In this document: positions 46,506-48,836 of the stretch, piece by piece
How the letters are laid out: each line of letters opens with the position of its first letter
Numbering within the stretch: the stretch's first letter is position 1
Assembly (NCBI GenBank): GCA_020849855.1
Contig: JADZFO010000038.1
Location: 108,010-172,009 of the forward strand
Source of the DNA: a bacterium
GTDB lineage: Bacteria > 4484-113 > JAFGCY01
Direction: 5' to 3'
DNA length: 64,000 nucleotides
Translations under genes and position numbers: made by a program
The notes under the pieces: model-generated
What the model saw: the letters and a program-made list of their open reading frames with translations, nothing else
Databases searched by the model: none
What the model was told of the DNA's origin: nothing

Positions 46506-48836
46506 ATGACCGCCCCGCTCTGGATCCCCACGCCCGAGGCCGCCAGCGCCACGCAGATGGCCGCCTTCCTGCGCTTTGTGCAGAGCCGCTATCAGTGCGG
46601 CGAGGACCTGACCTGCAGCGCCAGCGCGCATAACGTGAAGGACTATCCCAGCCTGTACCAGTGGAGCATCGAGCACCCGCAGCAGTTCTGGCACAGCGTC
46701 TGGGACTTCTGCGCTGTCCAGGGCGAGAGCGGCGCCGGGGGGCTCTTTGAGCCGCGCCTGTGCCGGGGTATCAAGCGCATGGCCCCGCCGGACCCCGAGC
46801 AGGGGCCATGGTGGTTCCCGGAAGGGAAGCTGAACTTTGCAGCGAATCTCCTGTTCCCCGCAGGGGCGGGACAGAGTCCCCGCCCAGACTTACATGGTGA
46901 AGATGGCGCTAATGCTGTCGCGCCCCTGCAAGACAAGGACGGGCGGGGACAAGCCCCGCCCCTGCAAGACAAAGACATGCCGGCTAAAGCCGGCGCTCCA
47001 GAAGACAGCGACCCGGCCATCATCGCCTGGAACGAGAACGGCCGGCATGCCTGGCTGAGCTGGGCCGAGCTGCGCTCGCGGGTGGCTGCTCTGGCACAGT
47101 GGATGCGCGACGAAGCCGGCATTGTCCCCGGCGACCGCGTGGCGGCCTTCATGCCCAACATCCCCGAGACCGTCATCGCCATGCTGGCGGCGGCCAGCCT
47201 GGGCGCGATCTGGAGCAGCTGCAGCCCGGACTTCGGCATCCGCGGCGTGCTGGACCGCTTCGGCCAGATCGCGCCGAAGCTGCTTTTCTGCGCCGATGGC
47301 TACCAGTACAGCGGCAAGTACATCGACAGCCTGGAGCGCGTGCGCGGCATCCTGCCCGAGCTGCCGAGCGTGCAGCGCGTGGTGGTGGTGGAGTATTTGA
47401 AGCATCGTCCGGGATTGGAAGGGCTGGGAAATGCCCTTTACCTCTCGACTATCATCAGTCCTGAGTCCCGAGTCCTGAGTCCTGAAGCAGATGAGCAGTC
47501 GCCGAGGCTCTCGGCCAAAAAAGATGTAGGAACTTCGGCCGATCCAGGACACAGGACGCAGGACGCAGGACAAGCGAGCTTCGAGCTCTTCCCCTTCAAC
47601 CAGCCCCTCTACCTGATGTACTCGAGCGGCACCACCGGCCTGCCCAAGTGCATGCTGCACGGCGCCGGCGGCACCCTGATCCAGCACAAGAAGGAGCTGA
47701 TGCTGCACACCGACCTGCGGCCCGGCGAGCGCATCTTCTACTTCTCCACCTGCGGCTGGATGATGTGGAACTGGCTGGTCAGCGCGCTGAGCGTGGGCGC
47801 GACGATCGTGCTGTACGACGGCAGCCCCTTCGCGCCGCGGCCGGGCATCCTGTGGGACATGGCGCAGCAGGAGCAAGTCAACGTCTTTGGCACCAGCGCG
47901 AAATACATCGCCCTGCTGGAGAAGGAGGGCGTGAAGCCCGCGGCGAGCCATGACCTTTCGGCCCTGCGCGCGGTGCTTTCCACCGGCAGCCCGCTGGCCC
48001 CGGCCAGCTTTGACTATGTCTACCGCGATATCAAGAGCGATGTGCAACTGGCCTCGATCTCCGGCGGCACCGACATCATCAGCTGCTTCGCGCTGGGCAA
48101 CCCGATGGCCCCGGTCTGGCGCGGCGAGTTGCAGACCCGTGGCCTCGGGATGAAGGTGGAGGTCTTTGATGCGCAGGGCAATGCGCAGCTGCCGGGCGTG
48201 CAGGGCGAGCTGGTCTGCACCAAGCCCTTCCCCTCGATGCCGGTGGGCTTCTGGAACGACCCGGACGGCAGCAAGTACCGTAAAGCCTACTTTGACTACT
48301 ACCTTGAGCACTGCGGCGCGGAGGCGCCCTCGGCGCCGGGCGGCGTGTGGCGGCATGGCGACTGGGTTGAGCTGTGCGACCACAGCACCGAGCCGGCGGA
48401 GCTATGCGGGCCGCAGAGCGAGGGCATGACTATCTATGGCCGCTCGGACGCGACCCTCAACCCCGGCGGAGTACGCATCGGCACGGCGGAGATCTATCGC
48501 GTAGTGGAGACCATGCCGGAGATCGTCGAGAGCCTGGTCGTCGGCCAGGACTGGCAGGACGATGTGCGCATCGTGCTCTTTGTGCGCCTGCGCGGTGGCG
48601 AGAGCCTGGGCGATGAGCTCAGGAAGAGCATCCAGCAGCGGGTGCGCGCCGAGGCCAGCCCGCACCATGTGCCGCGCTGCATTGTGCAGGTGCAGGACAT
48701 CCCGCGCACCATCAGCGGCAAGATCGTCGAGCTGGCTGTGCGCGAAGTGATCCACGGCCGCGAGGTGAAGAACGTCGATGCCCTGGCCAACCCGGCGGCG
48801 CTTGATGAGTTCAGAGACCGGGTAGAACTTAGGTGA
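46506..48836 (+). CDS. aacS: acetoacetyl-CoA synthetase (AMP-forming acyl-CoA ligase family) with two in-frame low-complexity insertions
   Basis: 776 aa; LYLMYSSGTTGLPKCMLHGAGG (AMP-binding motif I), the acetoacetyl-CoA-synthetase-typical N-terminus (PLWIPTPEAASATQM, SLYQWSIEHPQQFW), C-terminal SGKIVE. Inserts at nt 46860-46990 and 47440-47580 are encoded by palindromic repeats. TACAAT 6 nt upstream of the ATG. Confidence 0.85.
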   Translation: MTAPLWIPTPEAASATQMAAFLRFVQSRYQCGEDLTCSASAHNVKDYPSLYQWSIEHPQQFWHSVWDFCAVQGESGAGGLFEPRLCRGIKRMAPPDPEQGPWWFPEGKLNFAANLLFPAGAGQSPRPDLHGEDGANAVAPLQDKDGRGQAPPLQDKDMPAKAGAPEDSDPAIIAWNENGRHAWLSWAELRSRVAALAQWMRDEAGIVPGDRVAAFMPNIPETVIAMLAAASLGAIWSSCSPDFGIRGVLDRFGQIAPKLLFCADGYQYSGKYIDSLERVRGILPELPSVQRVVVVEYLKHRPGLEGLGNALYLSTIISPESRVLSPEADEQSPRLSAKKDVGTSADPGHRTQDAGQASFELFPFNQPLYLMYSSGTTGLPKCMLHGAGGTLIQHKKELMLHTDLRPGERIFYFSTCGWMMWNWLVSALSVGATIVLYDGSPFAPRPGILWDMAQQEQVNVFGTSAKYIALLEKEGVKPAASHDLSALRAVLSTGSPLAPASFDYVYRDIKSDVQLASISGGTDIISCFALGNPMAPVWRGELQTRGLGMKVEVFDAQGNAQLPGVQGELVCTKPFPSMPVGFWNDPDGSKYRKAYFDYYLEHCGAEAPSAPGGVWRHGDWVELCDHSTEPAELCGPQSEGMTIYGRSDATLNPGGVRIGTAEIYRVVETMPEIVESLVVGQDWQDDVRIVLFVRLRGGESLGDELRKSIQQRVRAEASPHHVPRCIVQVQDIPRTISGKIVELAVREVIHGREVKNVDALANPAALDEFRDRVELR

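Follow-up and report, generated by a model that had tools for sequence, protein, structure and literature searches.

Palindromic repeat elements as the probable source of two in-frame inserts in a bacterial acetoacetate-CoA ligase

Why is the acetoacetate-CoA ligase (AacS) encoded in a metagenome-assembled genome of a deep-branching bacterial lineage (GCA_020849855.1, contig JADZFO010000038.1) 776 amino acids (aa) long, when its orthologues typically measure 645-670 aa? The stretch analysed, hereafter the window, comprises 64 kb of this contig, and a first-pass annotation had placed two in-frame, palindromic or low-complexity insertions within the gene, expanding loops of what it took to be an AMP-binding enzyme. 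Here we show that the two inserts, InsA and InsB, belong to two different types of hairpin-forming repeat, relatives of which lie between and within other genes of the same genome and of related ones. We think it probable, at roughly 70%, that both are selfish or neutral palindromic repeats that are tolerated in permissive surface loops and translated as disordered segments. The gene and its inserts, whose boundaries are uncertain by a few nucleotides (nt), are as follows:

46506-48836, plus strand: intact open reading frame (ORF) of AacS, 776 aa, host of InsA and InsB
46860-46999 (about): InsA as a whole, some 140 nt, adding about 47 residues (aa ~119-165)
47457-47572: InsB as a whole, 116 nt, adding about 32 residues (aa ~318-356)

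That the ORF encodes an acetoacetyl-CoA synthetase, as had been proposed, is borne out by profile scores of 867 bits for NF002937 (cut-off 639) and 797 bits for TIGR01217, and in an alignment of 16 orthologues all core motifs of the ANL enzymes are intact. Among 85 AacS sequences site A, which lies between the conserved motifs NLL and AIIAWNE, has a median length of 7 aa, versus 54 aa in the window, and site B, the segment preceding FPFNxPL, one of 17 aa, versus 49 aa. The inserts are thus in-frame additions relative to the orthologues, and the peptides quoted for them in the first-pass annotation agree with the translation of the ORF, in which SPESRVLSPEADEQSPR and DGRGQAPPLQDK are examples of peptides that span the inserts. 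Conservation in distant orthologues would have spoken against insertion; in alignments of 16 and then 85 sequences, distant orthologues carry neither insert and have short loops at both sites. InsA occupies the loop joining helix 111-116 to strand 170-176, and InsB the loop immediately ahead of the P-loop strand. In an AlphaFold model built on 16 sequences (pTM 0.76), residues 120-162 and 320-357 are predicted as coil with pLDDT below 50, while the core fits the AacS structure from S. lividans, 4WD1, at a target-normalised TM of 0.86; mapped onto that structure by sequence, InsA falls near residue 100 and InsB between residues ~234 and 254. The structural comparison that had been suggested as a check is consistent with an expansion of loops. 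Site B is permissive in general, as is shown by the AacS of Gemmatimonadales (L005, L007 and L027), whose own, independent expansions at this site measure 57-76 aa; a TPPxG motif recurs in them, which looks like another repeat family in the same loop.

Three further short segments of AacS are common only to the closest relatives: 46602-46640, 48303-48341 and 48384-48419, corresponding to aa 33-45, 600-612 and 627-638. The second of these holds the palindrome GGCGCC-CTC-GGCGCC (48323-48337), and model confidence is low there too. It should also be noted that the NCBI record of the protein (P0001, 685 aa) starts at Met92 (position 46779) and equals AacS residues 92-776. As the ORF aligns to its orthologues from residue 1, this annotated start is probably too far downstream.

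What, then, are the inserts made of? The strings that the first-pass annotation had singled out within them were found where it had placed them, at 46863-46885, 46941-46961, 46979-46994, 47457-47485 and 47545-47572. Its description of them as palindromic or low-complexity captures their capacity to form hairpins, but the 'palindromes' of InsA are in fact the parts of one inverted doublet that resembles repetitive extragenic palindromic (REP) sequences, and InsB is more than low complexity, namely a pair of inverted heptamer arrays. InsA and its vicinity contain the following:

46860-46885: left REP-like unit, tag GCAG (46860-46863) and imperfect hairpin GGGGCGGGAC-AGA-GTCCCCGCCC
46921-46992: two tandem copies of a 36-nt unit, 78% identical (TRF period 36, 2.0 copies)
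46941-46965: right REP-like unit, hairpin GGGCGGGGAC-AA-GCCCCGCCC followed by tag CTGC (46962-46965)
46977-46999: second hairpin type, intragenic, ATG-CCGGC-TAAA-GCCGG-CGCTCC
46436-46458: intergenic copy of the second hairpin type, exact over 23 nt, 48 nt before the AacS start codon

Written from its tag, the left unit reads GCAG-GGGCGGGAC-AGA-GTCCCCGCCC; in its string GGGGCGGGACAGAGTCCCCGCCC (46863-46885) the palindrome is imperfect, 8 of 10 stem positions being paired, while GGGCGGGGACAAGCCCCGCCC (46941-46961) in the right unit has a perfect 8-bp stem and is the sole match to this string in the window. The two units stand in inverted orientation with a 55-nt spacer, as in doublets of the REPIN type, and they can pair with each other as well as within themselves: the outer arms match over 11 nt and the inner arms over 10 nt, both at 100%. 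As such, the predicted fold of InsA is one long hairpin, the minimum-free-energy structure pairing the two units with each other, and its single-strand folding has a z-score of -5.83, with none of 200 shuffles folding as well. The tags GCAG/CTGC fit GYAG, the accepted degenerate form of the GTAG tag discussed below. In the second copy of the 36-nt unit, a GCCGGC hairpin, ATGCCGGC-TAAA-GCCGGCGCTCC, stands in place of the GC hairpin. The string GCCGGCTAAAGCCGGC of this second hairpin type (46979-46994), which was said to occur intergenically as well, does recur at 46438-46453, in both places inside the exact 23-nt repeat ATGCCGGCTAAAGCCGGCGCTCC, the intergenic copy of which lies 541 nt upstream of the one in InsA. 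Within the window GCCGGCTAAAGCCGGC has 6 matches versus 0.19 expected. The InsA copies themselves lie within the AacS reading frame, and so do not share the extragenic location that is typical of REPs.

InsB is built on a different plan, with two inverted tandem-heptamer arrays, (AGTCCTG)4 and (CAGGACN)4, flanking a centre of 60 nt:

47457-47484: left arm, AGTCCTG AGTCCCG AGTCCTG AGTCCTG (the (AGTCCTG)x4.1 run spans 47457-47485)
47485-47544: centre, 60 nt, non-repeated, with small internal hairpins (GCCGAG-GCT-CTCGGC)
47545-47572: right arm, CAGGACA CAGGACG CAGGACG CAGGACA, complementary to the left arm at 23 of 27 positions
4225-4340: paralogue of InsB in the C-terminal tail of a NuoC-like ORF

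Allowing up to 2 mismatches, AGTCCTGAGTCCTG has 10 matches in the window versus 0.38 expected, a number that none of 100 shuffles reaches, and the complement of the heptamers, CAGGACGCAGGAC, has 7 versus 0.13 expected. InsB also folds strongly as a single strand (z = -4.75; 0 of 200 shuffles fold as well). Its flanks, ATCATC and AGCGAG, contain no direct repeat and hence no target-site duplication, and its unit, AGTCCTG, has no G run and therefore no potential for a G-quadruplex. The paralogue in NuoC lies 43 kb away; its left arm is identical to that of InsB at 26 of 28 positions, while the centres have largely diverged, retaining only weak similarity.

Both types of element have further relatives in the window. 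The REP-like hairpins follow the layout GGGC-stem-loop-stem-GCCC followed by CTAC(A), or GTAG followed by the hairpin on the opposite strand, and their stems vary among copies while the two arms stay complementary. Perfect hairpins with a GTAG or CTAC tag number 12 in the window, compared with a mean of 1.5 and a maximum of 5 in dinucleotide shuffles. Counted over the window and 59 kb of related loci, their density per 10 kb is 1.9 and 1.8-6.5, respectively, versus 0.40 for 80 unrelated AacS loci, which served as controls and belong to distant orthologues from a scan of a genome collection with the whole AacS protein. A REP-like composite interrupts NuoC (3599-3825), NuoD (5281-5385) and methionyl-tRNA synthetase (MetRS; 24133-24188, minus strand), in all three cases in frame, with the layout (GTAG)GGGGCGAGTC-TT-GACTCGCCC, about 20 nt, and GGCGGGTC-AA-GACCCGCC-CTACA. 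Its first hairpin is translated to GASLDSP in all three proteins, and its second to GQDPPLQ in NuoC and NuoD. In NuoC this second unit has been amplified to 3.9 tandem copies of 30 nt, encoding (GQDPPLQNQA)n, and the MetRS copy is situated within the linker that separates the anticodon-binding and tRNA-binding domains. The first-pass annotation had presented AacS as adding a third and fourth gene family to the phenomenon. The same element families do interrupt NuoC, NuoD and MetRS, but AacS itself counts as a single gene family.

Heptamer arrays that measure 21 nt or more occur 10 times in the window, forming five inverted pairs with the units GATTGCN (two pairs), GTCCTGA (two pairs) and ATGGCTA (one pair), versus 21 times in 1.29 Mb of control loci. 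Three of these elements, at 2674-2864 (GATTGCN), 5612-5781 (ATGGCTA) and 6343-6464 (GATTGCN), fill spacers between the genes of the nuo operon, and the element at 5612-5781 holds a nested hairpin of the GTAG type (5729-5747) and a GCCGAC hairpin followed by GCTCC. Beyond this lineage, the two-armed architecture of InsB was found on at least 120 metagenome contigs, of soil type and with a median GC content of 0.64. From the metagenome matches listed, 110 elements of 72-157 nt were extracted, which end sharply in AGTCCTG...CAGGACT. An open frame spans the element in only 7 of the 85 metagenome copies with enough flank, which shows that the InsB family is mainly intergenic; of 105 copies 101 lack a target-site duplication, and their flanks are not conserved. 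In other metagenomic bacteria, the AGTCCTG element is also found in frame in a DnaE-like protein with a PHP domain (L115, ~232-325) and in a RibD deaminase domain (L172, ~1078-1170), and the peptides that these copies encode resemble those of the window (VLSPESxVLSP...LRTQDSG). Inverted heptamer pairs of other sequence occur in unrelated bacteria, with CGTTCCA/TGGAACG in an acidobacterial locus (L023, 7264-14327), and TTCAGGN/CCTGAAA and GAACCCC/GGGGTTC in one of Wenzhouxiangella (L024, 2269-4934). The inverted-array architecture is thus widespread across phyla.

Are the inserts read by the ribosome? The GC content at third codon positions (GC3) is 0.54 for InsA and 0.52 for InsB versus 0.89-0.90 for the AacS core, so that the codon bias of the host is missing from both inserts. 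However, in the eight inserts of five orthologues the frame that is used is free of stops in every case, while 13 of the 16 other sense frames contain stops. The heptamer provides a sharper indication. In a perfect (AGTCCTG)n array each of the three frames contains a TGA, and no frame is free of stops in 81 of the 110 arms from metagenomes. The junctions between the heptamers of the left arm of InsB read, with their frame in brackets, TGA (2), CGA (0), TGA (1) and TGA (2). In the AacS and NuoC copies alike, it is exactly the in-frame junction that has become CGA, and the out-of-frame junctions retain TGA, which argues for translation of InsB. In the RibD and DnaE-like copies, GGA or AAA stands where the TGA would be in frame. 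We would therefore read both inserts as originally non-coding DNA that is now translated.

One could instead suppose that the inserts never reach the protein, being removed by an intron-like excision or skipped by translational bypass, as both can fold into long hairpins that join their own ends. The open frames in all eight inserts next to stop-bearing alternatives, and the specific replacement of the in-frame TGA, are difficult to reconcile with this. In addition, the window has no Rfam match at gathering thresholds, introns included, the NCBI coding-sequence annotation of P0001 runs uninterrupted across both inserts, and its precomputed Pfam domains, which span them, are only AMP-binding and AMP-binding_C, without an intein motif. 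We regard excision or bypass as highly improbable. Even less credible is an assembly artefact or a decaying pseudogene. Although repeats can mis-assemble, and the window does come from a metagenome-assembled genome, independent assemblies (GCA_964512635.1 and three JGI metagenomes) have inserts at the same two sites, and the intact ORF with all its conserved AacS motifs and a core GC3 of 0.90 does not resemble a gene in decay.

These independent assemblies also show how the inserts differ between genomes. The four relatives are listed here with their core aa identity to the window and the content of site B, which in the window itself is (AGTCCTG)n:

L001 (protein P0002, GCA_964512635.1): 92% identity, four-fold p-distance 0.27; site B with (GTCGAAG)n arrays
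L002 (protein P0003, JGI metagenome): 79% identity; site B with (AGTGCTN)n arrays
L083 (protein P0004, JGI metagenome): 74% identity; site B with a GTAG-tagged REP doublet
L084 (protein P0005, JGI metagenome): 74% identity; site B with a GTAG-tagged REP doublet whose stem differs from that of L083

As a measure of the gap around this clade, NuoD identity is 53-64% for close relatives and then falls straight to 40%. An affiliation with Opitutus or the Verrucomicrobia, considered in view of the published parallel discussed below, found no support. All five clade genomes thus carry an inverted-repeat element at site B, with the same codon as its left boundary but with different content. Within the heptamer elements the two arms are complementary at 23 of 27, 26 of 27 and 25 of 28 positions, whereas orthologous arms share only 8-19 of 28-29 positions. 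Site A varies in length, with 54 aa in the window, 62 in L001, 64 in L002, 24 in L083 and 10 in L084, and in L002 it holds a tandem series of five hairpins, each different from the others. InsA can be compared in detail between the window and L001. The left unit of L001, GTAG-GGGTGGGG-CTTGT-CCCCACCC, differs from that of the window by paired changes; the tags differ symmetrically (GCAG/CTGC in the window versus GTAG/CTAC in L001); and the third hairpin, GCCGGTC-TGTC-GACCGGC-GCTCC in L001, has gained or lost one base in each arm. The right hairpin, by contrast, is identical over its 26 nt (GACGGGCGGGGACAAGCCCCGCCCCT). The 23-nt intergenic hairpin also has an orthologue upstream of AacS in L001, albeit a degenerate one.

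In L085, which covers the nuo operon from the genome of L001, the two GATTGCN elements are orthologous to those of the window and conserved. The tail of NuoC, however, carries a REP composite in L085 versus a heptamer element in the window, the spacer 3' of NuoD contains AGTGCTN versus ATGGCTA, and the ATGGCAA array of L085 lies at a place that is not orthologous to that of the ATGGCNA family in the window. Taken together, the nuo and AacS comparisons indicate that the families are common to these genomes, that copies move or get copied between loci, and that occupied sites are re-used.

Could the elements instead have arisen where they stand, through slippage and hairpin-templated synthesis in hypervariable loops, their resemblance between loci being due to occasional gene conversion? 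A number of observations would fit such a local origin. No target-site duplication, conserved flank or transposase was found in the loci searched; InsA contains the 36-nt tandem duplication; all five orthologues have their site B element start after the same codon; no more than 1-3 nt separate the heptamer units found there (AGTCCTG, AGTGCTG and AGTCGAA); and single metagenome arrays contain mixtures of variant units, as concerted evolution in place would produce. On the other hand, near-identical arms occur in unrelated genes of one genome, as in NuoC and AacS, the composite encoding GASLDSP is common to NuoC, NuoD and MetRS, the ATGGCNA family occupies non-orthologous sites in two genomes, and at least 120 independent metagenome loci share the ends AGTCCTG...CAGGACT. 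These facts require transfer of sequence between loci, and we therefore consider an entirely local, non-mobile origin unlikely. Purely in-place compensatory evolution was likewise downgraded, as the left arm of InsB is identical to its paralogue in the same genome at 26 of 28 positions, versus 13 of 28 for the site B element of the sister genome.

A second possibility is that the hairpins are functional, kept by selection as structured RNA or DNA, for instance to make translation pause between subdomains, to stabilise the mRNA or to bind protein, in which case their sequence could drift or be swapped as long as folding persists. Strongly folding inverted repeats of differing sequence at site B in all five clade members (core identity 74-92%) are what one would expect from this, as are arms that stay complementary to each other while their orthologues diverge. 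The symmetric changes in InsA (GCCGGC versus GCCGGTC/GACCGGC, GCAG..CTGC versus GTAG..CTAC) and the right hairpin, perfectly kept against 27% neutral divergence, can be counted on the same side. However, the distant AacS orthologues manage with short loops at both sites, the element families are mostly intergenic and found in unrelated genes, here as well as in metagenomes, and the T to C change that removes the stop in the left arm of InsB is uncompensated in the right arm. Moreover, symmetric changes are also known to result, without selection, from quasi-palindrome template switching or gene conversion. A selected role for the hairpins is therefore, in our opinion, about as unlikely as their local origin.

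Tolerated selfish or neutral repeats remain the reading that we prefer, and the course of events could be as follows. Non-coding hairpin repeats, scattered between and within other genes of this genome and its relatives, would supply both inserts. Each element would land in a length-tolerant surface loop of AacS, or be copied into it by recombination, and only in-frame, stop-free versions would survive. The ribosome would then read through, adding about 47 and 32 residues that are predicted to be disordered and are unlikely to have a catalytic role. The symmetry of the arms at the nucleotide level would be kept by processes acting on DNA rather than by selection on the protein, for which recent copying or copying between loci, gene conversion or replacement by family members, and quasi-palindrome template switching, a known mutational mechanism, are candidates.

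Several observations must be weighed against this. No empty site was seen among the close relatives, and the occupation of site B by a hairpin-forming element in all five clade members could mean constraint rather than neutrality. The 26-nt hairpin of InsA is identical in the window and L001 despite a divergence of 27% at four-fold sites. That the inserts are translated is deduced from their sequence only. Furthermore, no mobilising enzyme was found in the sequence searched. A tblastn search for a REP-associated tyrosine transposase (RAYT), with an approximate E. coli sequence as query, gave nothing with E < 1 in the 123 kb that the window makes up together with related loci, nor anything in 591 kb of metagenome loci; and there is no transposase among the 20 ORFs of the window scanned against Pfam. 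For the heptamer elements, the lack of target-site duplications (101 of 105 copies) and of a conserved flank leaves classical transposition unsupported. The GTAG tag of the REP-like family, in turn, suggests a HUH enzyme of the RAYT type.

How do these elements relate to systems described before? A parallel in behaviour is offered by the Rickettsia palindromic elements (RPEs; Ogata et al. 2000 and 2002), which reportedly measure about 100-150 nt and lie in frame in many unrelated genes that are still functional. In both cases in-frame palindromes add surface segments to proteins. The two are probably unrelated in sequence, however, and Rickettsia are AT-rich obligate intracellular bacteria, compared with a genome of about 65% GC and free-living style here. 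Base composition and host thus make it very unlikely that InsA or InsB are RPEs, the likeness being one of behaviour only. RPE-4 and RPE-6 have been assigned to the CGTC-tagged REPs, one of two superfamilies, GTAG- and CGTC-tagged, defined by Di Nocera, De Gregorio and Rocco (2013, BMC Genomics 14:522; PMC3733652). According to that study, the tag may degenerate to GYAG, several stem variants can exist per genome, and inverted dimers with spacers of 20-100 bp are frequent. REPs are mostly intergenic; intragenic ones are most numerous in Opitutus terrae and, as RPEs, in Rickettsia conorii, their dimers encode 20-30 aa, and hosts of in-frame copies are housekeeping genes, including those for a tRNA synthetase and NADH dehydrogenase. 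InsA shares with GTAG REPs the short GC-rich palindrome, the terminal tag, the inverted dimer and the in-frame position in a housekeeping gene. It differs in its stems and encoded peptides, in its GCAG/CTGC tag and in its deep-branching host, and no RAYT gene accompanies it in the sequence searched. Likewise, InsA and the elements that L083 and L084 carry at site B have the long-hairpin architecture of two inverted REPs that is characteristic of the REPIN/RAYT system (Bertels and Rainey 2011, PMC3116915; TnpA-REP, PMC8266576), but REPINs are extragenic by definition and linked to a RAYT gene that has these same REPs on its flanks, whereas InsA is intragenic.

The arms of the heptamer elements are inverted repeats, as in MITEs, the miniature transposable elements with inverted repeats, but no relative bearing a transposase was seen. 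Tandem heptamer repeats are also known from cyanobacteria as short tandemly repeated repetitive (STRR) sequences. Rehm et al. (2015, PMC4692102) described arrays of about 3-5 heptamers, GGGAATC in Xanthomonas and GGGGA(C/T)T in Nostoc, that are dispersed and mostly intergenic, and of which those in Xanthomonas form convergent inverted pairs with stem-loop potential in 70-75 cases. The arrays of InsB (4.1 and 4.0 units, 60 nt apart) are such a convergent pair, but the units found here (AGTCCTG, GATTGCN, ATGGCTA, GTCGAAG) are not G-rich and could not form a quadruplex. MITEs that add residues to coding regions as small, non-autonomous inverted repeats are on record, such as the QMITEs of Coxiella burnetii (PMC5896051; reviewed in PMC10969869). 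Those have fixed terminal inverted repeats related to insertion sequences, and they generate target-site duplications, the lack of which in the heptamer elements led us to reject a classical MITE. In the literature consulted we found no report of heptamer-array pairs that are translated in frame after removal of an in-frame stop, none of one site being re-used by different families, and none of how broadly the AGTCCTG family is spread among metagenomes; the heptamer itself, when searched for, brought up only an unrelated primer.

Since in-frame insertions of REPs and RPEs have already been published, the finding in AacS belongs to a known phenomenon, and the inserts reveal no new biological system. 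They do extend insertion of this type to a deep-branching lineage and to a second type of element, the inverted heptamer arrays, and show that related genomes can have different elements in one and the same loop. Moreover, they offer a clean natural example of non-coding selfish DNA turned into protein sequence, in which the families, their intergenic relatives and the change that removed a stop can all be read from the sequence. In practice, such inserts inflate protein length, can mislead the calling of start sites, and mark the loop positions at which ANL enzymes tolerate large insertions.

A bolder proposal is that inverted heptamer-array elements form a widespread and so far undescribed class of bacterial repeat, which spreads or renews itself by an unrecognised mechanism at the DNA level. 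With common ends on at least 120 contigs, no target duplication, conserved target or known transposase, and arms that evolve in concert, they may constitute such a class, and they may stay at the same intragenic site while their sequence gets replaced. We offer this tentatively, as a possibility that we doubt more than we believe. If it were true, hairpin-templated synthesis, repeats added at a break to each of the two 3' ends, or homing to hairpins already present would be candidate mechanisms, and protein loops would be a routine sink for heptamer elements, with in-frame stops purged later.

The architecture of the heptamer elements, yet with a gene inside, recurs just upstream of AacS. An ORF of 149 aa and low GC content (~49%) at 45892-46341 stands between inverted repeats some 40 nt long (45899-45932 and 46356-46399), which consist of 8-9-mers in tandem, (AACGCAGAG)n and (CTCTGCGT)n. 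In L001 it is conserved in synteny, at about 9340-9895. We considered this ORF as a possible autonomous partner of the elements and set it aside, as it has no Pfam match and is essentially an orphan: among 1.8 billion representative sequences it retrieves itself and three weak matches (E 4e-10 to 2e-4).

Two other repeat regions of the window deserve mention. A long minus-strand ORF (36278-38047) contains, at 36292-36404, tandem repeats that overlap one another and measure 18, 30 and 36 nt (CATGCCCATGCTC...). At 43384-43520, palindromic repeats of 25 nt in tandem (GCCTGCACTTGCAAGGGTGCAGGCCT, 2.3-2.8 copies) are joined by another GC hairpin; they lie between convergent KdtA-like and CarboxypepD_reg genes, which is a typical position for an extragenic REP.

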